Made by a program: the position numbers and the translations under genes
The notes under the pieces: model-generated
What the model was told of the DNA's origin: nothing
What the model saw: the letters and a program-made list of their open reading frames with translations, nothing else
The model's database searches: none
Source of the DNA: Amphiscolops sp. MND2022
Lineage: Eukaryota
Assembly: GCA_964187785.1 (NCBI GenBank)
Contig: OZ076418.1
Location: forward strand, 16,554,001-16,618,000
Length of the DNA stretch: 64,000 bases
Reading direction: 5' to 3'
In this document: positions 14,640 to 62,740 of the stretch, in pieces
Position numbering within the stretch: position 1 is the first letter of the stretch
How the letters are laid out: every line of letters begins with the position of its first letter

Positions 14640-14858
14640 TACGGAGATAACAGTAGTCGTTTAGACTAATAAGACAGTTTATGCCAAAAAGGACAATGTT
14701 CTGTTCTCATGCTATGAACTGTGCTAAGTGATATACTTGATTTAATTCTGTTGAGATACACAAGTTTGCTACTGATATTCATCGATTTTAATTCAACTTA
14801 TATATTAGACTTTGCCCTAGTCTATTACATGGCGCAGTCATAAAAGAACTATCTGAGA

Positions 14859-15887
14859 ATGAGCACCGATCCAAACATGTCCGAACAATCGGGACAATCC
14901 GAACAATCGGGAACACAAAATCAATCAACAGCGATGGAAAGAATGGAACAGAACAAGTACAAGATACCAATTCTATCAGACCGGGAGACAGACTTAACAA
15001 AAACCAACCCAAGAATGTCGTGGGAGCAGATATCGGAATATATTGATCTCACATACCACGAAAACTTGGAAGACTTGATGAACCACGGAACCGAAAGTAT
15101 GGATACCCATACAATTTACCAGCTAAAGGGCGATGTCATTTGGGCTCTGGGCCGAAAAGCAAATCATGAAATTATGAGAGGCCAGTGGGGCCGAGAGTTG
15201 AAAGAGGTCAACATTCAAGAAATACTGAAATTATTCAAAAAGACGATCATGCCCGCTCGAAACGTATTTCACAGCAGAGCACATATCTTTAATGTAAAGC
15301 AGGAAGACGATGAGACACTAGATGACTACTGGAAAAGATTAGTGGATATTGAGAGAAAAGATGAGTTCAACCGAATAACGCCCGAAGAAATTATCACATA
15401 CAATTTTACAGCAACGACTAATGACAAAAAGGCCCGGGACAAATTCATCAAAGGCCTATTAAAACTGTCCTAGAAACTATAAAACTTGACAAACTACAAT
15501 AGTAAGTACGGCGACAAAAAGCAAAGAAACATAAAGTCGAAGAGGGCTTCCTCAAACATTGGCTCCAGCGGAGAACAAGTTGCTTTCACTAAGCCTGTTC
15601 GGAAGCGAAGACCGCTAGACTCCGAACGGAAAAAGCCCCCAACCCGGAATTGCCCTTTCTGCGGGAAACCTAACTGGACACCGGAACATACTTGCCCTGC
15701 ACAGTGTAATATTTGTAAAAAGACCAGACATTTTGCCAGGGTTTGCAAAAGCAAGACCATGAACCGGATACATGACGAAGATGAAAAGGACAGCAACACC
15801 GAGCCATGGCCTGAAGTGGATCATATTCAGTCCACCAACGACGTCAACCGGATAGACTTCTACAAAGCAATCCTATTGGTGGAGTGA
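14859..15887 (+). pseudogene. gag of element A (frameshifted)
   Basis: Capsid-like KQEDDETLDDYWKRL segment. Zinc-knuckle remnants CPFCGKPNW...HTCPA and CNICKKTRHFARVC. Split over two ORFs. Confidence 0.85.
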
Positions 15888-18800: not shown

Positions 18801-20308
18801 TTAGTAAGAATACGGACACTCGGACCGTAAAACAGTTTTGACGAAATTTTTCTCAGACAACGGAAACCACGGACCATCCGTACCGATAACGGTACCTGCT
18901 TTAAAAGCAACGAATTTAAAGAATTTTGCGCCGGCGAAAATATAAAACGCATCCGCTGCACACCGAACCTTCATACTGGCAGGGGATTTGTCGAAAGGAC
19001 CATCCGAACAATTAAGTCGCTAACTAGAGCCAATTTGGAGGATGGATAAACTTTTGAAGAGAGTGTCCAATTAGCCATTAAGACGATTAGACAAACACCG
19101 CATAGTAAATTAAATATGACTCCTTTTCAAATGCATTTCGGGAGAAAACCGCGCACGACGATTACCAATATGATTGGCCAGCCATCATGCCTGCTGTCCA
19201 ATTGGAAGAAAACTGTGACCAAGTACGTTTTAGCACAGCTGACAGAGCTGCAGGTGTTTACTATACATGACTCTGACGGAGAGATGGCTGACTACCTCGT
19301 CCTGAATGAAAACAAGATCTCGCTCGGTAAGCCAACATTTTAAACAGTACCAGTTATACGAAAAGGAGGATAAACCCAAAGCCATGAAGTGCAGGTTCAA
19401 AACAAATAAAACTCTAACAGCCGTGAAAGAATCAGGCCTTACTATCACCACGGCGGACGGGAAAATAATACAAAAAACTAGCCTCTAACCCGTTGAAAAT
19501 TCAGCCACCAAAGAAACCGGAAGAGTCCAGGAAGCCAACCAACAGGTGCCGCAGATGCGGTAAATTCACCCAGGGTGACTTTTGCGAGACCCACCAACGA
19601 TTAATGTCAGTAAAGCTGAAACAAGACAAGGCCAGCACGAGCAAGTCCTTCCGGAAAATACCGAACCGTGATGCCAAAGAAGACAGAACCACCATCATGA
19701 AAATTTAGCCACTAAAGAAACCGGAAGAGTCCAGGAAGCCAACCAACAGGTGCCGCAGATGCGGTAATTTCACCCAGGGTGACTTCTGCGAGACCCACAA
19801 ACGGTTAATGTCAGAAAAACTGAAACAAGGCGAGGCCAGCACGAGCAAGTCCTTCTGGAAAATTCCGAACCGTGGTGCCGAAGAAGAGAGAACCGTCATC
19901 ACAATCACGACGGACAGCCAGACGACCGATGCGGAAGAAAGTAGAACTGCAGCGGACGAACACCCCGAAGCCGACGAGACCACGGTGATCAAAGCCCCAC
20001 CGCCGACCACAGTCACAGGCCGCACACTAACGACCGAAACCCCAATGCCGTCCTCACCCATCTGTTGCAGCACCGGAATTAGCACCCGTACCAACGGACG
20101 GGACCCAACGGCAACTCCGACAAAACCATCGGATACCATCGCCGAACCGCCGGAAGAAGGTAGAGTATATGGTAGGAGAGGGGGGCGGGTAGAAACCGCT
20201 AATAAAGACGTAGATAAAGTTTTTAAAAAAATCCCAAGTGAAAATCAGGATGTCAGGAGGTCTAGTAGGATAAGAACCGCAAAACGGGTGGAAAAGATGG
20301 GGGCATAG
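15880..20308 (+). pseudogene. pol of element A (PR, RT, RNase H, integrase, C-terminal extension), multiply disrupted
   Basis: FIIDTGSP (about 15900). RT motifs VKIALDSRNLN, MSKIDLDYA, FGL..FPTVFQ-like and PVWLNDII. RNase H IDACN and FASKFLSDCERNY...ELE. Integrase HHGH...WWPGMY...CPSC, LDFAGP and DNGTCF. Many stops and frameshifts. Confidence 0.9.
19496..19905 (+). repeat. About 204-bp tandem duplication in the integrase tail of A
   Basis: AAGAAACCGGAAGAGTCCAGGAAGCCAACCAACAGGTGCCGCAGATGCGG occurs at about 19511 and 19715. Confidence 0.9.
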
Positions 20309-20468
20309 AATGTTTCTGATAACACTTAGTTGGTTTAGAGAAAGACACGACGTCACCCAGGCGCATCATGAAAACTTTCAAGAAGCTCAAGCTGGACCAG
20401 CAAGAAAAGACCGCAATCAAGAAATCCAAGGAGTGGTTTCCCTGATTCCTCATCCACAAAGGGGGGAA

Positions 20469-20661
20469 TGTTACGGAGATAAGAGTAGTCGTTTAGACTA
20501 TTTAGGCAGTACCTGCCAAAAAGGACAATGTTCTGTTCTCATGCTATGAACTGCGCTAAGTGATACGCTTGATTTAGCTTTGTTGAGATATACAAGTTGG
20601 CTACTGATATTCATCGATTTTATTTCAACTTATTTATTAGACTTTTCCTTAGTCGATTACA
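20469..20661 (+). repeat. 3' LTR of element A
   Basis: TGTTAC...ATTACA, preceded by the PPT and followed by TSD GAGTT. Confidence 0.92.
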
Positions 20662-21663: not shown

Positions 21664-22731
21664 TGTCGCAAGCTGCCGCCTGCGACGGCATATTCTATCA
21701 GATACCAGGAAACAGTACTCTTAACCCCCCACCAGGAGTATTGCCAATTTAATCAGCATCGGACCACGAGTACGAACGCCTACAAACAATATATTACTGT
21801 TAGACTGAAATTAATTTCACACATATTCGACCTTAAGTCGATTTGCCTACAACAAACTTATGTATTAATTAAACGCACTACTGGTCACTTGTAATATGCT
21901 TTTAGTATTTGTGTTTGTAATACCTTTTGGAAATCAATAAATTGTTGTAATGTTAGAATGTAAAAGGCGCTATAATTTAATACTTGAATTGAAACGCACA
22001 AGTAAGCAGGTTACAGGAAACGAGTTCAAATGATCGTTTCCTGTAGCTAGCTGTACGCGGCGTCCTCCAATATATTGACCAATCACAGCGCTGTACATTT
22101 AGTGTAGACGCATGGACCGGTGGTCCGCTTTATTATTATTTGCTGTTGCCATTGAACTATTGTGCTTAGTGCTGTAGACGCATGGACCAATGGTCCGCTA
22201 TAGTGCTTTTGATTTAAATAGGTACTCATCGATAGAGTAAAGTGTTTAGACGTGATTTAGATCTAATTTAATGTTGTTTGCCAATACATTAGTAGCCTAT
22301 TTGAATGAATGTCATGTAATACTTGAATAATCATGCATTTTACATATATATATATTTATATTAATATATACATATATACACATATTCGTGTTACTATTAA
22401 ACCCAGACCTTAGGGCTAAGCCGCCTTGTCCTTCAAAGTTACTTTGATGCTATTTTTATCTGTAACAATCAAGTGACGTAATGTTGATGTAATCCCTTAG
22501 AACTATTTCTGGAATTCGTTGCCTATTTATAGTAACATGACAACCTAAATTATGCTGATCATGCAGTGTGACATATAAATAGCAGGGACGATAGGTCCCG
22601 GGGATGATTATTGTTGCTATCTACACCCATACAAACGTTCTCAACATTACGATTATTGTTCTCTTTGTTTGATGAAACTATCACGGTACAACCAGTTCAA
22701 TCAATTTTATTATTGAATTGACTAATTTTCA

Positions 22732-24495
22732 ATGCCTTCAACTAGAAAGCAAAAGGCCAAAGAAAGGCGCTCTAGGCAATTGGACATCATGTCCGATGTG
22801 GAAAATGTCGATATTATGCTAGGAAGTTACTCAAGGGATGGTGAGGGTAACGCTAGTGAAGATGAAATGAATTTGGACTCAGAGTCCAACAGGCTACAAC
22901 AAGGTTCAAACGTTATCGGTGAAGACTTTAGGTCTTTATTAAATACAAACAGTAGAGAAAACAGCCAGGTTACAATTGAAACCACTAGAATGATTAGTGA
23001 TGAAATATCTAACCAAGTCTCAAGAAGATTAAATGAAATCAAAACTAGCTTAAATTTCCAAATACAAGACGCAATTAGCAATGCAATCACTGAAAAAATA
23101 CTTCCGTCTATCCAAAATACGCTAGAAATGCAGGGGAGACCTAATTTCACCATGGTGGACCGAAGGTCCAACGGGCTACATCCCAGCCCAAAGTCGACCG
23201 AATTCACCATGAAGGACCAAAGGTCCAGTGGGCTACAACGGAACGCCGAAGTAGGAAATTCGCAGGAAATGGTGGAAAACCGCCCTAAAACGTGTTTTAC
23301 ACAGGAAAATGGTAGACAGATGTCTAGAGAGAGTTCAACAGACTCTATAAACAGCGAACAAAATCGCGACATGGTGACAGGAGCCAACCCTACCCCACAT
23401 ATGGTTCCTGAGTTTCTCACTGGACGTCCCATGCAATCCCGTGAACCCCTGCAACGTCGAAACTCCAACAATGACGAGTCCCAGGAAACAATCCCCCAGG
23501 TTTCTGAGACTACAGCACCTACTACTGGTTCTGACCCCATTAACCGCCTAGCTGAAGTATTGGTTGGCATGAATAACAGACCATCAGCGCAAACACTAAT
23601 GGTACGTCCTGTCAGCTCCACCACGCTGACATTTGACGGCAAGTCAGAGAAATTCGAACTTTTCGAAGATCTCTTTCACACAATGATCAAAATGCAACCA
23701 GATATGACTGAAGCCATGAAAATCAACCACTTTCATTCATTGTTACGCAAAAACGCCCTACAAACTTTTCGTAACATTAACACGGCAAACAGGCAAACCT
23801 TGGAGGACATCCTGGCAGTATTCCGCAGGAAATACGTCAAGCCTGAGTCCCAGGCGACCGCCAAACACAAATGGCACCGATTAGTGTTCGATCCAAACAC
23901 CATGAAACTGCCCGACTTCCTTGAAGAACTCAATCAAGGAGCTGAAAAAGCGTTTGGCGAGAACGCCCAGGCCATGATCGATAGCCTCCTTTATGCCAAA
24001 CTGCCGCCAAAACTGAAACGCTCAGTCAATATGGCTAGACTAGAAAATGCGACTTATGAGGAAATAGTTACTCATCTGGAAAGAGAATTAGAACTCAATG
24101 GACTTGAGGAGGGTGATGACATTCCAATCCCAACAATGTCTACGGCCCCGACAGCAACACGACCGGGTACAGGCCTTCTTTCCTCTGGAATTGACCCGGG
24201 AATTACCTGCAATTATTGCAAAAAACCAGGTCACACAAAGGATGATTGCCGCAAATTAAAAAGGAAAGAAGAACAAAAACGCAATGACGGCCAGAATACC
24301 AGAAAAGAGTATCCAAAGTGCCCGACTTGTGACAAAACGAACCACCCGGCGGAACGGTGTTGGAAAGGCGCTGGAGCCCACCTCAAACCTAAGAACCTCA
24401 AACTAGAGGACTCCAAAACTGACGACCCGTCCACTAGTAACAACGATGTCCAACACAAACAAACAACCTCTATCCTGAAAAACCCAAAAAACTAG
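22732..24495 (+). CDS. gag: Gag polyprotein of element C (587 aa)
   Basis: Capsid-like FDGKSEKFELFEDLF...INHFHSLLR region. Two CCHC knuckles CNYCKKPGHTKDDC and CPTCDKTNHPAERC. Uninterrupted. Confidence 0.93.
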   Translation: MPSTRKQKAKERRSRQLDIMSDVENVDIMLGSYSRDGEGNASEDEMNLDSESNRLQQGSNVIGEDFRSLLNTNSRENSQVTIETTRMISDEISNQVSRRLNEIKTSLNFQIQDAISNAITEKILPSIQNTLEMQGRPNFTMVDRRSNGLHPSPKSTEFTMKDQRSSGLQRNAEVGNSQEMVENRPKTCFTQENGRQMSRESSTDSINSEQNRDMVTGANPTPHMVPEFLTGRPMQSREPLQRRNSNNDESQETIPQVSETTAPTTGSDPINRLAEVLVGMNNRPSAQTLMVRPVSSTTLTFDGKSEKFELFEDLFHTMIKMQPDMTEAMKINHFHSLLRKNALQTFRNINTANRQTLEDILAVFRRKYVKPESQATAKHKWHRLVFDPNTMKLPDFLEELNQGAEKAFGENAQAMIDSLLYAKLPPKLKRSVNMARLENATYEEIVTHLERELELNGLEEGDDIPIPTMSTAPTATRPGTGLLSSGIDPGITCNYCKKPGHTKDDCRKLKRKEEQKRNDGQNTRKEYPKCPTCDKTNHPAERCWKGAGAHLKPKNLKLEDSKTDDPSTSNNDVQHKQTTSILKNPKN

Positions 24496-24497
24496 AT

Positions 24498-26168
24498 TTG
24501 CCACGACTCCAATTTAACGAAAAACTTCGTGTCCGACAATATATAATTTCAGACCCCTCAAACATATATTATACTGAATATTATACCTCTCTTAAAGAAA
24601 CATCATCAGCTGACTGGCAGCAGCAGATGAAGACTCCTCCTACCTCTCACACCAATTTGGACCCTATGTCCAACAGACTACAAAACAATACTACTACTAT
24701 ACGACTTATACCCCTTATTGATGACTATAACCCATACTACCAGGACCCAGACTATGGTTTTGACCCCTACTGGGACGCTAATTGCTACAATCAACATCAT
24801 CTATACTTCTATAGTAATTTCAACAAACCAACTCATAATAGAGAACCAGACTCTTATGAAATTGACCGAGCCTTGAATATGGTTCTTGTGAAAGCCAAGG
24901 TCGATCCATGGCAACAAGACACAACACCGAGTTCTGAAGTCATTCATACTGAGATTGACGATGAACCTCACCGTGCGGGACCACAGGTCCCACTGGCCAC
25001 AACAGTGGCTGCCCGTTTTGTAAACACCTTAATCACAAGAACAGGTGAACCAGACTATGTTCCGCTGACAACTAATCTCGGCCTCAAATACAAGCGACGA
25101 ATGCTCTATTTTCCAATGGATTTTGGCGAACTAACATTAGATGGCCTTGTAGACACGGGAGCTTTATCTAGCGCGATCCCAGAAGCTGATCTACGTAAAA
25201 TCCGATTACTAGCCCCTCAGTCAATTGTCAAAGAGGGCCCAGCCCCTGGCTTCCAAATTATGGTTGCTAATGGACAGCTGGAGACTCCAAAGAGCACCGT
25301 CGAACTGAAGTTTGAAGTCGGCGATATTGAATTTCACGAAATATTCATAGTCATGGAAAAACTCACCAGTCCATTGATTGGTCTTTCGTTCCTTCAGAGG
25401 AACAACACCATTCTGGATATGCGACAAGGTGTCCTGAATTTCCCATTCTTTTCAATGCAGTTAAAAACTGCAGACCACAAATACACAAACGTCATGGAAC
25501 CCATTTGCATTAGAGAGGATGTAACCATCCCACCTAATGACCGACACACGGTCCTCATGGCTTCACAACTGTACGAGGATACTACAGTTACCGGGATCCT
25601 TCAACCGAGCAACACCCTTACCGATGATGGCGATATTGCTTTCTGTGCTGCTCTAGTCACATTGACCAATGGTCAAGTATCTGTTCACCTGAACAACTTT
25701 ACCGACAGTCCGTATACCCTCAAAAGAGGTACACAAGTTGCTAATTTCACTGTCCTCACGCCGGAACAGATGAAATATGTCAAACCTATTGACCCAGTGA
25801 CCACCTGGCACCTTTTGCAGGACAATCCTGAAAATGCTGCTTACTACGCAAGTAGTTTGATCAAATCTACCAAACCTGAGGACTTCAAAGAAAACTACTG
25901 GTTTCCAACACCAGAGGACCCTGGGGACCCTCAGCAGCACACGCCAATCCAAAAACGGATTTTGTCAGAGCTGATCAATCTTCAGCAATTAGAAAAACTC
26001 AATCCTCAGGATGACCCTGAGTCGAGACGCCAATTCTTGTCCAATTTTGACTGGACTGACTCTATGCTACAACCTGCGGAAATAGCTCGCATAGAAGACC
26101 TACTTGTCGAGTTTCATGATATCTTTGCCAGACATCGCTTCGACATAGGTATGAACGAGGACTTCAAG
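24498..26168 (+). CDS. pol: Pol of element C, partial (aspartic protease, dUTPase-like spacer, RT N-terminus)
   Basis: LVDTGA protease motif; VTIPPN...HLNNFTDSPYTLKRGTQVA spacer; LLVEFHDIFARHRFDIG pre-RT motif. Lies in the -1 frame relative to gag and runs into the gap. Confidence 0.9.
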
Positions 26169-26368
26169 NNNNNNNNNNNNNNNNNNNNNNNNNNNNNNNN
26201 NNNNNNNNNNNNNNNNNNNNNNNNNNNNNNNNNNNNNNNNNNNNNNNNNNNNNNNNNNNNNNNNNNNNNNNNNNNNNNNNNNNNNNNNNNNNNNNNNNNN
26301 NNNNNNNNNNNNNNNNNNNNNNNNNNNNNNNNNNNNNNNNNNNNNNNNNNNNNNNNNNNNNNNNNNNN
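26169..26368. other. Assembly gap (200 N)
   Basis: Run of N. Confidence 1.
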
Positions 26369-26453
26369 TGGTTTTGTAGAAACAATGTGTAGTTGTCTCA
26401 ACGTGTAGCGGCGGAGAGCACGAGTATCGGGTAGAACTTAAACAGAACCAACG

Positions 26454-49085: not shown

Positions 49086-50462
49086 CCTACGGAACATACG
49101 GGACCTACGGAACATACCAGAACCTATGTGGTGTTTCGTATCGAACTTAATGAAATCTCTAAATAACAGTTATGATAACGTGGTCAAAAGCTACACCGAT
49201 TGTCAAAATTGAAGGTTTTTTGTTTTTGTCTCTTTTAGGTCTTTACGGATCTAATTTAAAGTCTTGAATCATATGCAGAATGTGTGCGGGTTCTTTGTTT
49301 TTCAATGAAGATCGAAGCTGTGTTTCAAATGCCAGAACACTTATACTGAGAACAAGTATTCTGGCCATTTTTCTAAAATCACGCTTCTAGATGTATTGTT
49401 TTTTCTGAAGCTTATATTTTTCGGCTTATCAACAGTTGATGATAAGTTGCGGGATGCAAGATGGCTGTAGCAAAATGCTTGCTTTGTAGTATCTTCCCGT
49501 TTCTTTAGAGAAACTGACATAACAAGTTACATTAAAATAAACAAGGGCCTTTTCAAATGCAGAAAGTTTCGTTTTTGTGATCAACGGATTAAATTGTCAG
49601 TTTATACTGCCCTTATAGAAAGAGAATAGAAAAATTTCTTCTTGCACCCAATAACAGTTATTCCAAATGAATATAGCTACTATTCTGCCCGTATAAGCCC
49701 CGAATCAGTTTTGGAGTTTTCCGTGCTTCACTTCATATGGCAGCGAATCTTCAGGATTCCCCGGGAAAGATAACAGGGTAACACAAAAGAGCCAAAGTAT
49801 ATACTCAGCGCAAAATATTTTGAAAGTATTAGCCAAGAGCTTACATGTTGTTACATGTTGTCACATATTCTGTTAACTATTGAAAGCCTTGATACGATCT
49901 GATTCATAATTACTTCACAAGAACCTGTTAAATTTCCGAAAGTGAATCTAGAGAATCTAGGTGAAGATAAATAAATAAATAAATAAATAAATAAGTCAAA
50001 TAAATAAATAACTTGCAAATCAAGCATCAATACTGTTGACAACCACTTTACTACTGTTCGCAGAATCAGCTAGCTAGACTATCAGCAATTCAAGTGTTGA
50101 ATATGTGACAACAAAAAGTATTGAATTTCAAGATCTGATAATTTGATTGCTATTCACGAGTCTGAAAACAAGTTTTAATTTCCACGAGTCCGAAAGATTG
50201 CTGAGCTCTTTTGTTGTATCTTACATGTATTAAGATACGATTTTGAAATATAGCCACTTAAAACAAGCTCGTACTAATACAATTTACAATATTTTCGAGA
50301 AAAAATAATTTGTCAGATTCGAAATGTTTGGGAGAATTTTTCTGTCAAAATTATTTTGAAATCAAAAAATTTTAAGTGGGTCAAAAATTCAAAAAACTTA
50401 AAAAATGATGTTTTCGAAATCGCTCTCGAGCAATGAAATGAGCGCGTGAGACGTTATTTAGC

Positions 50463-51176
50463 TGTAGCATACAGAGCTAAGCAAACAGGAAATGACTTTT
50501 ATATATGAATACTGCTTAATACAAATACAGTGTACACGTATACACTCTGTTGCTATATACACATCTATATATTAAAAAAAAATTAACTGCGTTGCTTAAT
50601 ATACATTGTAACAATAGGTGTGCACATTTTACTTTTTAAACAAATTTTACAAACAATTATCCAGGCAGTTCCAAGCAGTGTGCAATTTAAAAAACCTCGT
50701 GGTCGTTTCTAAAATTTCAGCTGCCTTGCAGTAATAAATATTTTGTTGAGTCTGATTCAACTTCCCCTTTTTTCAGCTGCCCCTTATTTAAAGCTGCTCT
50801 TATTATTTTATGCGCCCAATTCAGCTGCTCTTTTATTTAACATTCATCAAAAGCCCCACTCTTACCCAGTGCAGGATTAATTATTTATACGTTTCTTGCA
50901 CCTGCAGAAGTATCTTCAGAAGCAGAAAATTATCGAAGCCATAACTTCATCCATCAAGCCAAATGTAAGTTGTGTTTGTTATTTAACATTTTTGATTAGT
51001 AAAAATCGTTTTTTTAAAATTGAGTTTTCATATTCTTATAGACTTTTTTCTTGTCCTTTTTTTTAGAAATATCCACCAGTCACTTTTGAAAACAAAATAT
51101 ATCCATTTACCCTAACAATCGCCCCGCGCATCGAAAGTTGAAACGAATAGAAATCTAGTAAAAAGCGATTGTTAAA
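50463..51176 (+). repeat. 5' LTR of element D
   Basis: TGTAGC...GATTGTTAAA; direct repeat of 62028-62740. Confidence 0.95.
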
Positions 51177-51177
51177 A

Positions 51178-51195
51178 TGGTGACAGGAGTGGGAT
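51178..51195 (+). promoter_or_regulatory. Primer-binding site, tRNA-Leu-like
   Basis: TGGTGACAGGAGTGGGAT versus the tRNA-Leu(CAG/CAA)-type PBS TGGTGTCAGGAGTGGGAT (17/18, from recall). Confidence 0.75.
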
Positions 51196-52304
51196 ATTTG
51201 TAAAAAGAGAAGTTTTTTTTTACAAAAAAAATTAAAGTAACTTAGAACCCCCATCAAAACATTCTTAGTCCTAGACCCGATCCAAAAATTTTTTTTTGAA
51301 ATGTGCCATTTCCTGGTTCGCCAGTGTTGCCCATAAGATTCCCAATCCGGACATGGTCCGTGCCTAGTTTTCCAGCTCAATGCTGTGTCTTTCCGCTTCG
51401 GCGTGTCTCAGGCTTTAAAATGGCACATTTGACCCAATGTCCTTAAGTTTTAAGAAGTTACACGGTAAGTGCTTGTCATAAAACAAACAGTAGCCAATTT
51501 TTTGTAACATTTCTATCAAAATAGTTCCGTTTTCTTTTTGATAACCTAAATTCTAATAACCGCCGCGAGTTTTTTTTTGTTGATATGCCTTGTGCTCACA
51601 ATACGCATTCTCACCTACCGTTGTACGTTTTTCCCCAACGACCGCTTCGACCATCAAGTCCTCCGCCCTCTTACAGCAAAACACGTGAAAGACCGATATT
51701 CACGCCCTGTTTTTTAAGTTTTCTACTCTTGATCCTCTGTTTTGCGCTTCTCTTGACCGTTTTAGCCCTTTGTGCGATGTCGTACGAAATCAACAAGATA
51801 AATATAACTTGTAAAGCACTTCAAACCCAAAGAGTGGACTATACGTCTCTGTAGGAGCGGCCTAATGTATGCTTTTAGCATACCTGTTTCCGTTTTGTCA
51901 AACACACCGCCTCAAAACTTCGTTATTCCTTGCTACTTCTGCCAAGTGAAACTTTTCAAAATTCCATTATCGCATCAACCAGAACGTCGTTTTACGGCAC
52001 ATGAACTGTCGATTCATTTGCGTCTTGAGGCTATCCACAATTGGCAACATCGAAACGTTTGTTCAACTTTCCCGTATGGTCGTGTTGATAACAATGCAAG
52101 TGTAAAAGCTTCCTGGGCGTCCTTTTTCCCTCAATTAGCCAATATTTGGGCTTCTCATATTCAATTTCTAGCAATACACGTAACGAATCCATTCTATTTG
52201 GTCTATCCCGACTGCAAACCACCTAGTCTCAATTTTGGTCCGCTGCGAATGGATCGCATGTGAAACGTTCTAGACCTAACGTAGACTTTAAGCGTTCAAA
52301 TACA

Positions 52305-53191
52305 ATGAGCACTCAACCAAGCACCCCACAACGGCCACCTCGACAGCGGTAACCAATACTACTACAACCCCAGTTACTAGTGGTGGTGCAAGTAGCTCCC
52401 AAGCACTAGCACAAGCACCTACCGTGGGTTCTACAACTCCTAACACTAGTACAACCCCAACAGCTTCCTTTTTCACTCTGCCTGGCGGTAGACAAAACCC
52501 AACAAGTGTTCCATACATAGCCCCGCTTCCGTCATGTCTGATGCCAGAGTCTTTCACAGGAAAAGGTGATTTCGAAGATTACCTGCAACAATTTAACACA
52601 GCAGCACTTCTCTCAGGCTGGTATTCGAACGCACACGATAACAGACCACATTATTTTGCGTTGCGATTGAGAGAAAATGCTTTGCCTGGAGATTGAGAAC
52701 GGAAACCCCCAAGCCGCTCAAACAGTTAACTGAGTTAGTACTTCTTCTGAAGCGGAGCCATCAGCGTCCAAAATTATGGCTGATTTTGTTCGATCATTAC
52801 AAACTGAACTTCAGTCGTCAACGTATCGGTCCAATAATGATTTCCATCAACGAGGAGACACAAAATCATCAAACAAAAATGATCACTCGAGATCGCAGAG
52901 TAATGATTCCAATCGGAGTGGCCAGTCAGTACGATTTCAGTCGTCACAAGGACGCGAACGACCAAATAACGCAGGCAGATCTGACAAAACACAAAAACAA
53001 CAGTATCGCCAAGATTCCCCCATCCCAAGAAACAAGGCAACAATAACAACACGCAAAACAATCGGAAGCCGTGCGAGCGTTGCACACGCAAAAATCATAC
53101 AACGAAGGAGTGCAAAGCTTGTTTCAATTGTTTGAGAGTCGGTCATTTCCAGAATGAATGCAAGGCTCCCAAAAGGAAACATTTAAACTAG
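52305..53191 (+). pseudogene. gag of element D (internally deleted, frameshifted)
   Basis: PESFTGKGDFEDYLQQF capsid start truncated at about 52685. CCHC knuckle CFNCLRVGHFQNEC near 53118. TAG at 53189. Confidence 0.8.
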
Positions 53192-56100
53192 AAATGTCTA
53201 CGCTACCGGGTCAGAGCGCAGACAAGACCACAAACCGAGGCCCACAAATTCAGACTCTTAACTCTGTGGTGGATCACAGAAGTGTATTTGTCCAATTATC
53301 TATTTTTAATACGGTGATTGAGGCTGTGTGTGATAGTGGAGCAAGTGTATCTTGCCTGAGTTCTGATGCATTTGGGAAATTGAAGAACGGGAAGAAATTA
53401 GAGCTAAAACCGTCAGACACGAAGCTAGTAGCAGCCAACAAACAACCTATAGTAACACGCGGCATTGTGCAACTACCTTTGCAAATCGGTCCGAGACATT
53501 ACGAACATGCGTTTCACGTTCTGGAGCAAGCAGAAGCTGACTGTCTACTCGGCTTAGACTTCCTTAGAACTCATAAATGTGACCCGTTGTTTTCCCAAGA
53601 TATACTGCGTCTTGATGAAAAGACGACAGTCCCCCTGTATCATCGTCAGCTCACTGACGCTACGACAACAGTGTTCCGAGTGGTGGTGTCGGAGACAGTT
53701 TCGGTACCGCCAAGACATACAATGATAGTGCCTGCGCACATCAAGGACTGGAAACGCCCAATGAATGAGGGTGTAGCAATTTTCGAGCCGCACGAACGGT
53801 TCGATGGCTGTAAAGATGCAGTGGCCCCAAGCATTTTGTTCAACATCGGTGAAGAAAACATCCCGGTAACGATAGAAAACTCCGGAGAAGAGCCACTAAT
53901 ATTGAATGAGAAGACGACTTTGGGTACTTCAGAAGTAGTTCCTGATTTACCCATACAAAATATAGTAACCGAAACAAAAAGCTTGAAGTCTAAAATAGAC
54001 GAAAAAGACGAATCGTACGATTTGAAAAACGTCGTGGATGGAGTTAGCCCGGAAATTCCATTCAAAGTAAAACAGAAATTTGCAGAACTTGTTTACGAGT
54101 TCGAAGATGTGTTTTCGCAAAACCAATGGGACATTGGTCGTTGCGAAGCCACAACACACAAAATAAACTTATACCCAGGATCAAAGCCGATTAAAATTCC
54201 CAATCGAAGAATGCCTCTCCACTATAAACAGGATCTCCAAGAGAAATTAGATGCTTTTCTGGACAAGGGATTGATAGCTCCTTGTCATAGCCCCTACAGT
54301 GCTCCAGCCATGCTAGTCCCGAAGAAAAACGGCAAACTCCGCCTGGTCATTGACTATAGGCAATTGAACAGTCAAACAATCAAGTCGTGCTGGCCAATCC
54401 CATCGATTGAAGAAAATTTCGATACTCTAGATGGAAGTTCTGTCTTCTCCACTATAGACATGAGTTAGGGATTCTACCAGTTGCCCCTAGACGAAACCAG
54501 TCAAGAGTATACTGCTTTCAGCACGCCGTTTGGTTCCTTCAAATGGCTTGTAATGCCGATGGGACTCACGAACAGTCCACCGACGTTCCAAAATTTAATG
54601 GAAATCGTTTTGGCGAAACTTATCTGGAAAACAACAGTCCCCTACCTTGACGATTGTATCATCATTGCCGCTTCACCGGAGGAACACTTAGAACGAGTAA
54701 GGGAAGTTCTAGGCAGATTTAGACAAGCCAACTTGAAAATAAACCCCCTAAAATGTGAATTTTTTCGCAACAAAGTCCACTTCTTGGGCCATGTCATCAG
54801 CAAAGAAGGCCTTCAAGTTGACCCCACAAAAATTGCAGTTGTTAAAGAGTTTCCGGTCCCAATTAACCAGACACAGGTGAAGTCATTCTTGGGCCTTTGT
54901 TCCTACTATAGACGTTACATCAAAAATTTCGCTGAAATTGCTCGTCCCTTGCATAAAGCGAGTGAAACCAACTCGCCTTTTAAGTGGACAACCGAGGCAG
55001 AGCAAGCGTTTGAAGATCTAAAAGCACGACTCCTCACAACACCAATTTTAGCCTTCCCAACAATGGAAGATCCTTTCATCCTCTACACGGATGCCAGCCA
55101 ACTAGCAATGGGAGCCGTTCTAGCCCAAATACAAAATGGCCAGGAACGTGCTATTTGCTATGCATCAAAGGCATTCTCCAAATCCCAATCAAAGTACTCA
55201 GTGACGAAACGAGAACTTCTGGCAATGGTCCACTTCACTCGGTACTTCCGACATTACCTACTCGGAAGAAAATTCAAAATTGTCACAGACCATAGTGCAC
55301 TTCGCTGGTTACACAATTTCAAGGAACCCGACGGTCTCATTGCACGGTGGATTGAAAAACTAGCAGCTTTCGATTACGAAGTGCAACATAGACCAGGCAA
55401 ATCTATCGGACATGCCGACAGTCTGTCCAGAATACCACTTGAATCCGTCCAATTAACGCAAGAATGCCGAACAGGAGTCCCAGGTGCAACAAAAATGAAG
55501 AATTGCAACAATGACGAGGAGTGGCCCAACGCACAATCTAACTACAGTGTTCATCTATTGCCTAGAGATACAGCATCAATACCACTCCAAGCTGTCATTG
55601 AACTCAACGAAAAAACTAATATTCACAGCAAAGACAAAACCGGCGATCTTCTCGAACATGAGCAACCACAAGAAAAGCCTCTACAAGAAGAACTAGTCAT
55701 TACAGAAACAGGGATTGTCAAGTATCGCGAGGTGAAGGGCGATTTGTTCAGTTCTTCTGAGTCCCTAGCTCACTGTATCTCAGCTGATTTTAAAATGAGT
55801 TCTGGAATAGCCTGATCATTCAAAAGGAAGTTCCCAGCACAGTATCCAGAGGACATATCGAAGCAAACTGTGCCACTTTGGGTACAACCGCTACCTGAAG
55901 ACGGCCGTTTCCTGTATCACTTGCTGACTAAAGAACGTTACTACCAAAAGCCAACCTATACTTCACTTCGAGCTTCCCTGGAACACATGCGTAGCCATGC
56001 TGAAACGAACAACGTCCTAAACAATTAGTATGCTTCAAATCGGCTGTGGAATTGATAACCTTGAATGGGATTTGGTTCGCAGACTTATCCGAGAAGTCTT

Positions 56101-58099
56101 TGACGGATCCAATGTTTGTATAACTATTTACTTGCCTCCATCGATTTCACTTGGTCGCAAAGACCCAGCCGTAGTAACCGCCAATGATACCGATCCAGTG
56201 CATACGGACATTGATGTCCGCAATGCTCAAGATGAGGACGAGGCCTTGCAGATCGTGAAAGAATGGGTTCGTAAGGGTCGTGTGCCGCGGAATAACGACC
56301 TACAAGGCACTCCCGAATTAGCATGGAAACTTTATAATCAGTTCTACAGTCTATATCTGGTCAATGACGTCCTTTGTCGAAGGTATGAACCAGTTGGAGG
56401 TGAACTCCCGCACCTACAGCAAATTGTTCCTTGTGCCTTGGTAGAAACTATCCTAACAAACTTGCACTCTTCCGCTACCAGTGGACATCTAGGCCTAGCC
56501 AAGGTAATGGAGAAAGTTCTACAGCGTTTTTGGTGGCCCGGTTTCAAAGAAGATATTAAGCTTTTCATAAAACGTTGTTCCGAATGTCAGCGACGTTCAA
56601 ATCCTCCGAAAACTCATCGTCACTCCCTCGTAAAGTGGAAGGCTAGTTACCCTTTTCACCACATTGGAATCGATTTCATGGGCCCACTGCCGGTGTCAAA
56701 TGGAAATAAAGTAATTTTGTTGATCGGGGATCATTTTACAAAATGGTATGAGGCAATACCTTGGCTGATCAGCAAGCAACAACAACAGCTACTGCTCTTA
56801 TCGAACATTGGATCTGTCGATTTGGTTGTCACTACAGTATACACAGTGACCAAGGATGTAACTTTGAATCCAAGTTGTTCCAGACTCTCATGGCAAGCCT
56901 CCATATTGACAAAACAAGAACAACTGCTTTTAGACCCCAATCTAATGCAGTGATTGAGCGAATGAATCGAACACTCCAGAACATGCTAGCAAAGTGTGTA
57001 AACGCTGAACAAAGCAACTGGTCCCAACAATTACCGTACGTGATGATGGCCTACCGGTCATCTGTACATGAATCAACCGGATATTCGCCTCAATTTCTTG
57101 TACATGGGCGAGAGATCTCCTTGCCAATCGATTTGATGTACCCTGTACCTGAAACCGAGGAACCGATGTCTACTACTGATTTTGTATACCATCGAAAATT
57201 GGCCTTCCAAAAAGCGTTTGAACTACTGCGAGCCAACATTAATAAAAACCAGAAACGTCGCAACGCCATTTACAACGAAAAGATCCATGGCCCTACCTAC
57301 GAACAGGGACAGAAAGTGTTGCTCCACACACCAGTGGTCCCAGTTGGTCAAACAACCAAGTTTCACAACCCATGGCGTGGTCCATATGTGATACTTGACT
57401 GTTTCAATGATGTCACATACAAGATAGGAGAATTGACTACGTCCAAAGAACTAGATTGTTCATTACGATAGATTGAAGCCTTACTACGAAAAACCAGCCA
57501 CGTCAAATGTTCCTACAAGAAATATAAACCTTCCACAACCCAATACACCAGTCCAATCCAACGTTCCTACACGGAATATCGATTTGACTTCAACAATACC
57601 CGAAACCTCGCATAAATGTTGTATGCATTTTCAACAGCCACCGCTGCAGCCTGTGAACCTCCACAGTCCTCCTCATCAGAATCAACAGATCACTCTCACA
57701 CCACAATCAAACCGCCACAATGCTCAGTTACCGACCCAAACTCCAACTCCCGCTTCCATCTCTGGTAACCAGCGCTCTCAAACTTTCCAATCTCCTGGCG
57801 TTCAGACAATGGCCACTCCCGAAACTCCTTCAGTCGACAGCCCTAGTTATCGTTAAGCTCCAACATTCCATTGACTTCTGTCCAACGAACACCGAAACAT
57901 CGTTGAAAACGCCGCTGTTCAATTTCAAGATATGACAAACATACCATACAATCTCCGCGCAAGTACACGCACACAGCGATTGGCGGAACCCCTGTGTAAT
58001 TCTTCAATACCTTCTGAGCTGACTGACTTCAACTCACCGCCACAGCACAGCAAACCGCATTCCACCAAACGTTTCACAAATTATACAAAAAAGAAATAA
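53182..58099 (+). pseudogene. pol of element D (PR, RT, RNase H, macrodomain, integrase, tail)
   Basis: CDSGA; LRLVIDYRQLN; FSTIDMS*GFYQ; YLDD; LYTDAS; HSS..SGHLG..WWPG..CSEC; IDFMGP; HSDQG; ERMNRTL; WRGPY. Stops at 54466 and 55813; frameshifts near 56020, 56762 and 57455. Confidence 0.93.
55717..56131 (+). pseudogene. TARG1/OARD1 (Poa1p-like) macrodomain embedded in Pol
   Basis: VKGDLF...SLAHCISADFKMSSGIA*SFKRKF...YHLLTKERYYQKPTYTSLRASLEHMRSHA...ISMLQIGCGIDNLEWDLVRRLIREVF...ITIY follows the TARG1 motif pattern over its full length. Confidence 0.92.
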
Positions 58100-58180
58100 C
58101 TTGAAATAGTCGCTTTTCCTTTCGTTCTCCTGTTCTTTTCCCATCACCAATGGCCTAACAAGGCTCCTCTGTTTTTCAGG

Positions 58181-60526
58181 ATTTCCTACTTTCCAAACTC
58201 TCAACAATTGTGGTTCCTCTTTCTGTTCGTCCGTTGGTCGGTCCTGATCTTTGCGGATGTGCAGTTCACAACACACCTCAACGATGACCTGGAAAAACAC
58301 GTATTCAAAAAAGGTGCAGCGTTTGTGTTCAAATACCAAGCTGTTACCTCGGAAAGTGAAAGCAAAGTCCGTGTGTTCTCTCCCTTCCCCAAGATGCCTC
58401 AAATCAACATTACCAATGCCATTAACATGATCAATGCCTTCCAGACAGCCCCTCGAAGCATCGGGGGCATGTACATCAATACTAATTGCAAGTTTACAGA
58501 AGTTAATGACACGTATGACCTCCTCCTGCAACAACTTATGACAAGAGTCAATTTCCTGCAAACAGAATTGGCGGCAGATCAACAAGAGGAAGACACTCTT
58601 CTGGAAGTTGTGAACTCTTTTATTCCGCCAGCTGTTAGACAATCTGATGACATCGTTCGACCACGTCGAGCAATTGCCGCTATTGCTGCAATCGCGGCGG
58701 GTGCCGGAATGGTCTTGGGCGAACCCATCAAAGACGCCGCTTGTAGCGCCCTTTCTATATTTAACCTCTGTCACACCAATGAAGATCTGAGTCGCGATGT
58801 GGAACGCATAATGAATACACAGCAAGAAATTGTTGATACACTGCAGCGTGTTCAAACTCGAAATGACAAGAATTTCTTCCTGCTCGGAAACGAGATTAAA
58901 CAGACCCAGGAAAGTGTCCAGAAGTTGAAAGAAAGTGTCGGTCTCCGCTTCCAACAAATGGAGTTTTACCTAGTTAATGCTACTCGCTACTTGGCTGCGA
59001 CTAGCCTTGATTGTGATAAAGTGATTATTCGCCATCTTAGCCTTCAGCAATTCTTGAGAAATTACGTCTATCAGCTAGGGACACTTTATACTCATCTCAA
59101 GTCCTACCGTGCAGCGTTTTACGCTTACCGCATTTCGCTCTACTCCACCATTTCCTCGTTAGCTAGTGGCTACATTACACCTCAGTTTCTTCTGCCTCAA
59201 CAAGTGGCGCAAATTGTCAAAGACTTAGCAGATGACGAAGTAAAGCGAGGCACCAAACTGTCCCCAGCTATTCGACCTGGTTTCGAGGCAATTTACTATG
59301 AGATACAATTAGTACTCGAAGTAACTTTGATACCACGTGGTATATCTGTCATACTCGGGATCCCCATGAACTCAAAATCGTCGACGTTTGACATTTACCA
59401 TGCTACGTCTCTGTATCAGCCCAACAATGACCAGAAAACTGCGTCGCTCTTCAATTTTGCGAACCCTTTTTTGGCAGTATCTACTGACAATAGTAGATTT
59501 GCAGAGCTCGGTGCTAATACGCTGCAGCAATGTTCGGGCAACAATCGTATCAAATTATGTAGAAAAGGCTTCTCAACAACAACCGATGAAACTCTTCTTT
59601 GCTTAGGATCCTTGTTCTATAACTACGATGTTCCCGCCTTACGCAATTGCGAAGTCCGCGCAGTACTTTTACCCGACGCTCCTCAGGCTTTTTATTTGGC
59701 GGATGGGATGTACCACGTCATATCACGGTCTCCCACCCTCAAATTCAAAAACGATAGCCAAATTGACGGCCTTTCTATCTCTACTATCACCTGTCAGGCG
59801 TGTGTCATACGCCCTAGCTGTTCGAGTACACTGTCTTTCAACCAGGGTGAACTGGTTCTTCATCCTGACATGGATTTTTGCGAGACCCGGCCGGAGCCTT
59901 TTCTTGCGTCGATTGAGTTGACACCGTCTTTGAATCAAGTCTTCGCGCATGTACCCGCCATTGGTAGCGCCGAATTTCAGGCATATTCTACTAGTGAAGC
60001 TCGTCAGTCGGTTCTTGGCAGTCTACGAATGGAACTAGCCGAACTACTTGACGTCCAACACATGTCGCCGGAAACTTTAGATCAACTGACAGAGCCAATC
60101 GCCAAATATTATTCTTCGATCTCGCCGGCCACATCCGCAGCTTTACAGTCTTATTTACACACACGTACTGCTTTTTTACTTTCGTCATTGTCAATCACAA
60201 TGTCTCTTTTAACGTTTTCTATAAGTTTTACTTTGTTTAGACGTCATTGGCAGCGTCTCTTTACAAATCCTCAACGCTTTTTCCGAGCTACTTCCGGTAG
60301 ATTTATTAATATAGTCGAATCTATGACCCCGGAGTATGATTTGACCGGTTCTTCATTTTTGTATTTGACGGACGCTGAATTCCGTGCACTGATTTTGCTG
60401 GCTCGTGAAACAATTCGTCAGGCTGAACCGAAACCATCCAATTACACTGCACCCAACGTCCCTACACTTCCACCACGTGTTTATCCTAATATTAGTGCGT
60501 CAACTTATGAGTCTACTTCGACGTGA
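58181..60526 (+). CDS. env: Envelope glycoprotein, class I (F-type) fusogen-like; probably expressed by splicing
   Basis: Hydrophobic N-terminal signal. Furin site RPRR (58658-58669) followed by the Ala/Gly/Ile fusion peptide AIAAIAAIAAGAGMVLG. Heptad region, Cys-rich domain, N-glycosylation sequons, TM near 60170-60238 and a cytoplasmic tail. No stops. Confidence 0.88.
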   Translation: MSYFPNSQQLWFLFLFVRWSVLIFADVQFTTHLNDDLEKHVFKKGAAFVFKYQAVTSESESKVRVFSPFPKMPQINITNAINMINAFQTAPRSIGGMYINTNCKFTEVNDTYDLLLQQLMTRVNFLQTELAADQQEEDTLLEVVNSFIPPAVRQSDDIVRPRRAIAAIAAIAAGAGMVLGEPIKDAACSALSIFNLCHTNEDLSRDVERIMNTQQEIVDTLQRVQTRNDKNFFLLGNEIKQTQESVQKLKESVGLRFQQMEFYLVNATRYLAATSLDCDKVIIRHLSLQQFLRNYVYQLGTLYTHLKSYRAAFYAYRISLYSTISSLASGYITPQFLLPQQVAQIVKDLADDEVKRGTKLSPAIRPGFEAIYYEIQLVLEVTLIPRGISVILGIPMNSKSSTFDIYHATSLYQPNNDQKTASLFNFANPFLAVSTDNSRFAELGANTLQQCSGNNRIKLCRKGFSTTTDETLLCLGSLFYNYDVPALRNCEVRAVLLPDAPQAFYLADGMYHVISRSPTLKFKNDSQIDGLSISTITCQACVIRPSCSSTLSFNQGELVLHPDMDFCETRPEPFLASIELTPSLNQVFAHVPAIGSAEFQAYSTSEARQSVLGSLRMELAELLDVQHMSPETLDQLTEPIAKYYSSISPATSAALQSYLHTRTAFLLSSLSITMSLLTFSISFTLFRRHWQRLFTNPQRFFRATSGRFINIVESMTPEYDLTGSSFLYLTDAEFRALILLARETIRQAEPKPSNYTAPNVPTLPPRVYPNISASTYESTST

Positions 60527-60599
60527 TTTAATTGCTTTGCACAATTCTGTCTCACTGTCAATTTCAGCTTCTTTATCAACTACTTAAGATGTCCCTTTT

Positions 60600-60790
60600 C
60601 CTAGTTGCTTCCTTAAGCAGCTAGTGCCTGTTTTACACATTTCCGTGTTACTTACTTTCCTCTAGGTTGCCTTTTCCTTCCTAGTTGCTTCACTACGCAG
60701 CTAGTGCCTGTTTTGATACACGTTTCCGTGTTGAATACTTTTCCGCTAGGTGCATTTTCTCCTAGTTGCTTCGCTACGCAACTAGTGCCT
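60600..60790 (+). repeat. Three about 80-bp repeats, each with a CTAGTTGC...GCA(G/A)CTAG hairpin
   Basis: Unit starts at 60600, 60680 and 60761. Confidence 0.85.
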
Positions 60791-60916
60791 AACAACACAC
60801 GTTTCGGTATCCGCAATTAAGTTTCAAACAATTAGTGCCTAGCAGATGCGTTTCCGCATCATATAGGATTTTCGTACACAGTGTAATCGGTGCAATCATT
60901 TTTTTGTTGTTTCAGG

Positions 60917-61987
60917 TTCCAGTTTCCAGCAGCCCCAGTGCCAGCGCCCTTCCTCCTCAGCAGCGGCCGCGTGCAGCCTCTAGCCGAGGGATATGTGGTC
61001 CGCCTGTTAGACAAAGATGACTATCGCGTCAAGAGAATAAACCCAGCAACACAAACAGTCGTACTACAAAAAATAAATTCAACCAATCGTTGCTTTGCTC
61101 GACCGGCTACGGAAATCTGGCTTCCTCCCCCAAGCAGTACCAGCCTGAGCGTGGAAGTGGACTGTCCTCCCCCTCCAGCAATTTGTGATTGCTCGCCAGT
61201 ACCTCCTAAATTAATCGTGGACACCTGCGATGTTGCGGTGGATGCGTCCCTCGACGCCGATGACAGCATGGAACTCTTAGTCTCAGAATTTGCATCGGTT
61301 GGCGAACTCAATAAGGGTTTTGAAGAAGCCCGAGCAAATGCTAACAAGGCACGCATCGAGTGTGAGCATACATTCGACCTCCTTTGCGAGGAAATGACTC
61401 TTCGGAAGGCAAAAGAAAACGAACTTCAAACAGCAACACTCGAGCTCTCTGCTCTACAAACCAACATTGCTTCTCAAGTCGTCGCCCTCGCCGAAAAAGA
61501 CAGCGAAATAGCAGCCCTGAAGACGCGCCTTAGTGCCCTAAGCGACGAAAACAGCTCTTTGCTCCAACACAGTCTGCAGCAAAGCGAAGAACTCTCTAAC
61601 CTTAAACTTGCCGCCAACAGGGTTTCAGATGCCCATCTAACTACAGAAATGCTAATCCATCAGCTGTCAACATATGCAATTGACCTGGATTTCAATGATG
61701 ACAACCTGTTCTTCGATGTCCTCGGACTGACACCAACCTCAGATGTTACCAAGATAAACATTTATGCTCGGCATCTCCTGCGCCTGGTCCACCCCGACAA
61801 GAATCGATCCATTCCAGCAGATGTCGCCCAACTTATTCCTTGCCTCAAAGAAGCTAAGAGCATCCTCACCGATCCCCAATTGAATAAAATATATCAATGT
61901 TGCGGTATGTCAGGTGTCCGCCGGGCTCGTCGCAAACTACGGACTTGCATGGATTGCGACTCCCATATGTCAGACTGGTTCGAATAA
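60917..61987 (+). CDS. Accessory ORF: coiled coil plus C-terminal DnaJ-type J-domain
   Basis: FFDVLGL...INIYARHLLRLVHPDKN...LKEAKSILTDPQLNKIY (61703-61905; HPD at 61790-61798). Heptad-rich segment at about 61305-61620. ORF is open and ends just before the PPT. The 5' end is uncertain (splice acceptor at 60915, or ATG near 61268). Confidence 0.85.
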   Translation, partial: FQFPAAPVPAPFLLSSGRVQPLAEGYVVRLLDKDDYRVKRINPATQTVVLQKINSTNRCFARPATEIWLPPPSSTSLSVEVDCPPPPAICDCSPVPPKLIVDTCDVAVDASLDADDSMELLVSEFASVGELNKGFEEARANANKARIECEHTFDLLCEEMTLRKAKENELQTATLELSALQTNIASQVVALAEKDSEIAALKTRLSALSDENSSLLQHSLQQSEELSNLKLAANRVSDAHLTTEMLIHQLSTYAIDLDFNDDNLFFDVLGLTPTSDVTKINIYARHLLRLVHPDKNRSIPADVAQLIPCLKEAKSILTDPQLNKIYQCCGMSGVRRARRKLRTCMDCDSHMSDWFE

Positions 61988-62027
61988 ATTGGCTGGCGAG
62001 GACGCAGCCTCACACGGGGGAGGGCAG

Positions 62028-62740
62028 TGTAGCATACAGAGCTAAGCAAACAGGAAATGACTTTTATATATGAATACTGCTTAATACAAATACAGTGTAC
62101 ACGTATACACTCTGTTGCTATATACACATCTATATATTAAAAAAAAATTAACTGCGTTGCTTAATATACATTGTAACAATAGGTGTGCACATTTTACTTT
62201 TTAAACAAATTTTACAAACAATTATCCAGGCAGTTCCAAGCAGTGTGCAATTTAAAAAGCCTCGTGGTCGTTTCTAAAATTTCAGCTGCCTTGCAGTAAT
62301 AAATATTTTGTTGAGTCTGATTCAACTTCCCCTTTTTTCAGCTGCCCCTTATTTAAAGCTGCTCTTATTATTTTATGCGCCCAATTCAGCTGCTCTTTTA
62401 TTTAACATTCATCAAAAGCCCCACTCTTACCCAGTGCAGGATTAATTATTTATACGTTTCTTGCACCTGCAGAAGTATCTTCAGAAGCAGAAAATTATCG
62501 AAGCCATAACTTCATCCATCAAGCCAAATGTAAGTTGTGTTTGTTATTTAACATTTTTGATTAGTAAAAATCGTTTTTTTAAAATTGAGTTTTCATATTC
62601 TTATAGACTTTTTTCTTGTCCTTTTTTTAGAAATATCCACTAGTCACTTTTGAAAACAAAATATATCCATTTACCCTAACAATCGCCCCGCGCATCGAAA
62701 TTTGAAACGAATAGAAATCTAGTAAAAAGCGATTGTTAAA
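62028..62740 (+). repeat. 3' LTR of element D
   Basis: Direct repeat of 50463-51176, followed by TSD TAGC. Confidence 0.95.

Follow-up and report, generated by a model that had tools for sequence, protein, structure and literature searches.

Env-carrying invertebrate retrotransposons are described as simple gag-pol-env elements. Ty3/gypsy elements with F- and gB-type envelopes, the "ancient errantiviruses," occur across animals, and the method section of the study reporting them annotates gag, pol, and env only (Chary and Hayashi, PMC13524379); the available parts of its main text mention no DnaJ, J domain, Hsp40, or "extra ORF," and seven of its supplements mention no DnaJ. Additional ORFs, including a GDSL esterase and a DEDDy exonuclease, are present in LTR retrotransposons of bdelloids (PMC5408684), in a paper whose accessible text names neither DnaJ nor a chaperone. 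Viral J-proteins are reviewed for phages, polyomaviruses, and HSV ICP22 (PMC13254874), and the string "transpos" is absent from the accessible text of that review and from that of another account of J-proteins, viral ones included (PMC10410713). The host factors of Ty1 include Sse1 and Zuo1 (PMC3522557), and neither the available text of that paper nor that of two others (PMC6338049 and PMC3383448) offers a precedent for a J-protein encoded by a retroelement. Throughout the literature searched, which lay mostly outside subscription papers and repeat databases, we found no retroelement-encoded J-protein.

The element analyzed here, in a 64-kb stretch of DNA (the window), carries a J-domain ORF downstream of env. 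It is a 12.3-kb Ty3/gypsy retrotransposon with the hallmarks of that group, namely, LTRs, a primer-binding site, a polypurine tract (PPT), a target-site duplication (TSD), and the order protease, reverse transcriptase (RT), RNase H, integrase (Table 1). The LTR-gag-pol-env order and the presence of multiple young copies are shared with the elements of Chary and Hayashi, as described in the available parts of PMC13524379, and so are an F-type env in the window lineage and a gB/chuvirus-type env in a second lineage discussed below, but here a fourth conserved ORF follows env. The ORF3s of bdelloid elements, as far as the accessible text of PMC5408684 describes them, likewise provide host-derived 3' modules in unrelated retroelement lineages; those ORFs, however, replace env, whereas here env is intact and the J ORF comes in addition to it.

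Table 1. Features of the J-carrying element in the window; a slash marks a splice junction.
Feature	Positions	Strand	Basis or remark
5' LTR	50463..51176	+	714 bp; 99.4% identical to 3' LTR; TSD TAGC at 50459-50462 before it
Predicted splice donor AAT/GTAAGT in LTR	50962..50970	+	Exon ends in AT; downstream of AATAAA at 50733
Primer-binding site	51178..51195	+	Starts TGG; sequence directly 3' of 5' LTR
gag position, fragmented in this copy	52292..53157	+	Short frames, no Pfam match; putative gag by position
pol (protease, RT, RNase H, macro-like insert, integrase)	53158..57856	+	Pfam; broken by stops and frame changes
F-type env, open	58180..60526	+	Atlas, anatomy; starts at phase-2 splice acceptor 58179/58180
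Three repeat units of ~80 nt between env and J ORF	60598..60795	+	8-bp hairpin each; repeat family D5, fold z -4.1
J splice acceptor, poly-T TGTTTCAG/G	60900..60916	+	Sequence, conserved in relatives; phase shared with env acceptor
J-domain accessory ORF	60917..61987	+	356 aa, without own start codon at 5' end
N-terminal SH3-like (KOW/Tudor-type) beta-barrel, residues 10-68	60944..61120	+	pLDDT about 95
Long helix / coiled coil, residues 114-251	61256..61669	+	AlphaFold2 model, heptad analysis
J-domain, residues 264-330	61706..61906	+	PF00226, model; HPD at 61790-61798
C/H-C ... CxxC tail (residues 328, 329, 344, 347)	61898..61957	+	Column counts; candidate zinc site
Polypurine tract	62016..62027	+	Sequence
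3' LTR	62028..62740	+	LTR comparison; TSD TAGC after it

The env frame is open from 58100 to 60526, and neither Pfam nor PDB sequence searches recognized its product. An Atlas comparison of language-model features gave a score of 0.95 to Baculo_F/Fusion_gly clusters, a score of low recognition value, and placed 10 of the 10 best named matches in the F clan. The anatomy of the protein agrees with this class, with a signal-like N terminus, an RPRR furin site with a hydrophobic, fusion-peptide-like segment, and a C-terminal hydrophobic segment that would span the membrane. The repeats between env and the J ORF, with their conserved hairpins, are a possible splicing, export, or packaging element.

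Several minor features of the carrier element were also recorded. The gag/pol region of the window copy (52292-57856) contains several stops and frame changes even though the LTRs differ by only 3 bases and 1 gap, whereas the env and J frames are uninterrupted; this copy may have moved in trans, or the breaks may be assembly errors. Sister copies have open pol frames of 1646 aa. The LTRs of the window clade end in TGTTAAA rather than in the usual CA, and those of some subfamilies begin with TAT instead of TGT. A macro-like domain lies between RNase H and integrase in pol of the window clade and of an env-less family (window 55730-56110; L079; L064); PF01661 (Macro) matched one open sister copy at E 0.0012, which is below the cut-off, Pfam gave no match in L064 or L078, and the domain is not evident in the lineage with a class III env.

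No start codon lies near the 5' end of the J ORF, which begins at a conserved splice acceptor (60915/60916) whose G is the third base of a codon. The original prediction of an intronless gene thus holds for the body of the ORF but not for its start. Joining of the LTR donor to the two acceptors, which share the same phase, would give AT+G for env or for the J ORF, and splicing to the env acceptor would in addition yield a signal-peptide-like start for env. In the 64-kb window, the donor pattern is confined to the two LTRs, and plus-strand matches to the acceptor pattern are confined to the env and J starts, both patterns having been drawn from the very sites tested. The donor AAT/GTAAGT was found in 17 of 22 close loci (one lacks it and four are not assessable) and in three of four distant ones. 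At ~30 to 50% identity, all five open-frame representatives (L025, L031, L032, L033, and L084) have a phase-2 J acceptor, as does a metagenome contig (L034), and the distant env acceptors keep their phase in 3/3 cases, followed by G in two and by A in one. Exceptions are L013, without the main donor, L024, which lost the acceptor, and L032, which has the acceptor and no AT/GT donor in the stretch examined. These patterns make a strong case that the J ORF would be expressed from a spliced subgenomic RNA, with the LTR donor supplying the AT of the start codon; since env would use the same donor, the two ORFs would be alternatively spliced. The env ATG of the springer subclade of Drosophila iERVs is likewise formed by splicing from an AU dinucleotide, according to the available text of PMC12992720, the difference being that here one donor would serve two acceptors.

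Between stop codons the J frame extends from 60887 to 61987, and its stop lies 28 nt before the PPT. The Pfam profile PF00226 matched residues 265 to 326 with 33 bits (E 6.6e-8; cut-off 27.8) and matched 14 of 24 alignment members at E <= 0.01; the ORF contains the motifs HPDK (292-295), LKEAKSILTDPQLNKIY, and CMDCDSH. An AlphaFold2 model of the product, built from a 51-row alignment, had a mean pLDDT of 86.4 and a pTM of 0.40, so that the model does not fix the positions of the domains relative to each other. Six strands within residues 10 to 63 form the N-terminal barrel, which is followed by a low-confidence or disordered linker with 10 Pro in residues 66 to 100, by one long helix whose heptad signal peaks at residues 174 to 230, and by the J helices (residues 264-338), with a domain pLDDT over 90. 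The original prediction had placed a beta-rich segment, a Pro-rich linker, a coiled coil, and a J-domain with an intact HPDK loop, in that order, in an open ORF just upstream of the PPT, and the frame, the profile search, and the model agree with it on each of these points.

The J part superposed on solved J-domains with Z scores of 9.3 to 9.8 and rmsd values of 1.8 to 2.5 A over 71 to 74 aligned residues (Ydj1: Z 9.3, rmsd 1.9, 71 aligned). When the whole model was searched against the PDB with Foldseek, J-domains topped the list and none reached E <= 0.001. The barrel aligned with an Spt5 KOW domain at Z 7.5 (rmsd 2.2, 60 aligned; VIA-align), and when it was folded alone, KOW, Tudor, and chromo folds tied at Z 6 to 7.5, none reaching 8. 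As modeled, the barrel is a generic SH3-like fold and names no ligand; Foldseek found nothing for it among viral models at E <= 0.001, and residues 1 to 150 gave no usable match in the ESM Atlas. We detected no signal peptide and no membrane segment (best 19-residue hydropathy, 0.96).

By this model, the protein is a soluble one of class C architecture, with a C-terminal J-domain behind a barrel and a coiled coil. It shares the J-domain fold and the HPD with cellular class A/B Hsp40s but has no N-terminal J-domain, G/F region, or beta-sandwich client domains; identity with that class is ruled out by the C-terminal position of the J-domain and the lack of a DnaJ_C match. With polyomavirus T antigens and phage Rki, as presented in the available part of PMC13254874, it has in common a parasite-encoded HPD J-domain that presumably harnesses host Hsp70, but here the J-domain is C-terminal, follows an SH3-like barrel and a coiled coil, and belongs to a reverse-transcribing element. 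Identity with a polyomavirus T antigen is also ruled out, as the architecture differs, T-antigen domains are absent, and Pfam and PDB searches gave no T-antigen match.

Exact HPD is present in 28 of the 39 alignment rows covering the site, and many of the other 11 look like decayed copies. Lys295 is kept in 34/40 rows and a basic residue (R/K) at 285, on the Hsp70-contact face of helix II, in 30/40. In the tail, C/H328 (33/37), C329 (35/38), C344 (33/39), and C347 (29/37) are kept. The Cys/His cluster that had been predicted from CMDCDSH therefore stands in part: the motif is present and its Cys set is conserved, but His350 is not, being kept in only 5/37 rows. Another conserved cysteine pair, a CxC in the disordered linker (residues 90-92, window 61184-61192; 30/33 and 35/36 rows), may be lipidated or bind metal between chains.

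Searching the 1.07-Gb genome of the same animal with the J ORF (114 of 229 candidates scored) gave 143 matches, whose identity ranged from 96% to about 30%; of the 13 full-length ones, 12 were free of stops. Manual merging, in which split and tandem pieces were collapsed, reduced the matches to 71 loci, and we treated the env matches in the same way (69 matches, with 56 of 840 candidates scored; 53 loci). A J ORF lies within 3.5 kb downstream of env on the same strand at 47 of the 53 env loci; four others have one 4 to 30 kb away, and two have none on that strand. Conversely, at least 46 of the 71 J loci have a listed env. L078, considered as an env-less copy with a J ORF, was rejected, being an internal deletion that keeps the 3' part of env. 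A distant family member, L058, has other sequence upstream of its J ORF, and at L052 (G000:C6:14207470-14207770) a J-domain lies near the start of a 1373-aa stop-free frame.

Over the whole ORF, dN/dS was 0.11 to 0.16 in all five unsaturated between-subfamily pairs, with two saturated pairs set aside together with one near-identical pair, whose value of 0.39 rests on 9 changes. The J-domain plus tail gave 0.07 to 0.12 in the four pairs having synonymous changes, and the barrel gave 0.03 to 0.2. The 3' third of the J ORF has recombined between subfamilies. Mosaic J ORFs were seen when L001 was compared with L002 and L008, where the swapped 3' third and LTR start are 98 to 100% identical at the DNA level versus 71 to 82%.

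Protein relatives beyond this genome comprised 81 representatives at E <= 0.001, a few of them ordinary J-proteins, and most could come from the same or a close species. A metagenome scan confirmed two of 97 candidates, the relative L034 (45% identity) and one ordinary DnaJ, while viral contigs gave one unrelated J match for the window family and none for the second lineage. The J family is so far documented in one animal genome and in these database relatives. Family-wide synteny, dN/dS near 0.1, subfamilies diverged to ~30% identity, and a J clade apart from the sampled host J-domains support the view that the J ORF is a long-resident accessory gene of the element rather than a fresh capture. 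This had been anticipated from the single copy.

In a PF00226 scan of the genome, many matches came as pairs spaced by about 1.1 kb. Among these paired loci, L037 is an LTR element with 526-bp LTRs that are 96.6% identical, a gypsy pol, and a class III env (PF24664, E 9.8e-19), followed by two ORFs in tandem. Both ORFs encode a short module at the N terminus, then a coiled coil, and a J-domain at the C terminus (E 1e-17 and 3e-12). The paralogous pair (L037:6982-8785; G000:C5:54011982-54013785) is 31% identical and has dozens of mostly decayed copies. All 20 best env matches of this second lineage have a first J ORF within about 1 kb downstream, and several more distant env matches have no J ORF among the matches listed. 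Exact HPD is found in five of six copies of the first ORF and three of five of the second, and most of the J ORFs have an acceptor-like site and their own ATG. RT/RNase H of the second lineage, represented by its copy L063, is 47 to 49% identical to that of the window clade, which is internally 66 to 80% identical. Close copies gave dN/dS values of 0.6 to 1.9, and between subfamilies pS was saturated (0.79 to 0.85) at a pN of 0.26 to 0.39, so that the near-neutral close pairs fit decay after insertion. In a high-copy env-less gypsy family, the single control, the 4.5 kb downstream of pol contained neither env nor a J ORF; the association of env with a J ORF rests on the two lineages and this one control family.

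In a tree of 43 rows and 74 columns that included 17 host fragments, a sample of the host DNAJ genes, the two sets of element J-domains formed separate clades (98/92 and 96/92), apart from the host fragments and not sisters. L053 and L056, in which no HPD-like frame was found, were left out of the tree, and L055 was entered as L058. A single clade for both sets was not rejected (p-AU 0.235). The N-terminal modules of the two lineages gave no alignment, and profile similarity between the lineages (probability 94.8) extends into the coiled coil, an extent that may reflect low-complexity matching. The host locus L043, which we take to be DNAJA-like by its N terminus, was the best host match recognized for L058 and likewise for the first of the two L037 ORFs, a weak lead. 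We advance tentatively the reading that a J-domain was captured separately by the two enveloped lineages, whose fusogens (class I F-type and class III gB-type) are unrelated. In each, the J-domain would have been joined to the end of a small beta module and a coiled coil and put after env under splice control, and it would bring host Hsp70 to some step of the extracellular and infectious part of the cycle. If true, the products would be the first Hsp70 co-chaperones known to be encoded by retroelements, and accessory genes would have evolved convergently in invertebrate retroviruses.

As the best explanation overall we favor, with some reserve, an env-linked class C J-protein that would recruit host cytosolic Hsp70/Hsc70. 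From the conserved motif and fold, the J-domain would quite probably stimulate Hsp70, and recruitment of Hsc70, already proposed in the original prediction, is likely. The atypical helix II described below and the 11 of 39 rows lacking an exact HPD weigh against this explanation. The protein would be cytosolic and coexpressed with Env through alternative splicing, the basic barrel would anchor it to the RNP or particle of the element itself, the coiled coil would oligomerize it, and Hsp70 brought to that site would act in the assembly, release, or post-entry uncoating of enveloped particles. We give this sequence of barrel binding, oligomerization, and delivery slightly less than an even chance, the client step being its weakest part. 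A role in Env folding, which had also been suggested, is unlikely in the usual luminal sense, since a protein without a signal peptide is not targeted to the endoplasmic reticulum, where the ectodomain would fold.

The same recruitment of Hsp70 could instead serve a host complex, with the barrel binding a defense or regulatory factor, such as a small-RNA or chromatin protein, that Hsp70 would remodel, by analogy with SV40 T antigen and Rb-E2F or phage Rki and sigma32. Known viral J-proteins do act on host regulators (PMC13254874, available part), Tudor and chromo folds tie with KOW in the fold search, and the weak macro-like insert in pol may be a second host-facing module. We nevertheless regard a host client as unlikely, because the low dN/dS of the barrel gives, at this resolution, no hint of an arms race and the splicing that env and the J ORF would share points to the particle-producing phase.

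Less likely still, stimulation of Hsp70 may not be what is under selection: as a decoy or J-like module, the domain could inhibit Hsp70 or bind it weakly, or it could play a structural role in a coiled-coil/zinc adaptor. Helix II speaks for this, having lost much of its basic charge (net 1.95 in 19 element rows versus 3.71 in the 17 host J-domains) and its usual conserved Tyr, which is mostly Ala or Ile in element J-domains, and so do an extra conserved Pro in helix III and the fusion of the Cys tail to helix IV. Against these features, HPD(K) is kept across about 30% identity, and in the second lineage, where most copies also keep the HPD, helix II is canonical, with a net charge of 3.75. That the ORF is a functionless passenger, a host DNAJ retrocopy captured recently, is very improbable: J-domains abound in the host genome and close copies of the second lineage are near-neutral, but dN/dS is about 0.1 in the window family, the second-lineage values fit postinsertion decay, none of the 17 sampled host J loci is among the 143 matches, and the element J-domains form their own clade.

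With recruitment of host Hsp70 by an env-linked J-protein, reverse-transcribing elements would join DNA viruses and phages as parasites that encode J-proteins. A conserved and presumably splice-expressed fourth gene makes these elements "complex," like retroviruses with accessory genes, and the HPD/Hsp70 handle makes that gene biochemically testable with purified protein. That J ORFs occur beside two unrelated types of envelope suggests that enveloped life cycles share a requirement for chaperone power, a point relevant to how retrotransposons acquire infectivity.

Other repeats were noted in the window. Positions 22726 to 26408 hold another gag-pol element (DUF1759, zinc knuckle, protease, and a weak dUTPase), cut by a run of N, and a relative of it adjoins the distant J ORF in L058. 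In the regions 10871-14640 and 14844-20661, a direct repeat of 1185 bp with 98.4% identity lies beside a decayed gypsy element that contains a 204-bp tandem duplication at 19494-19901.
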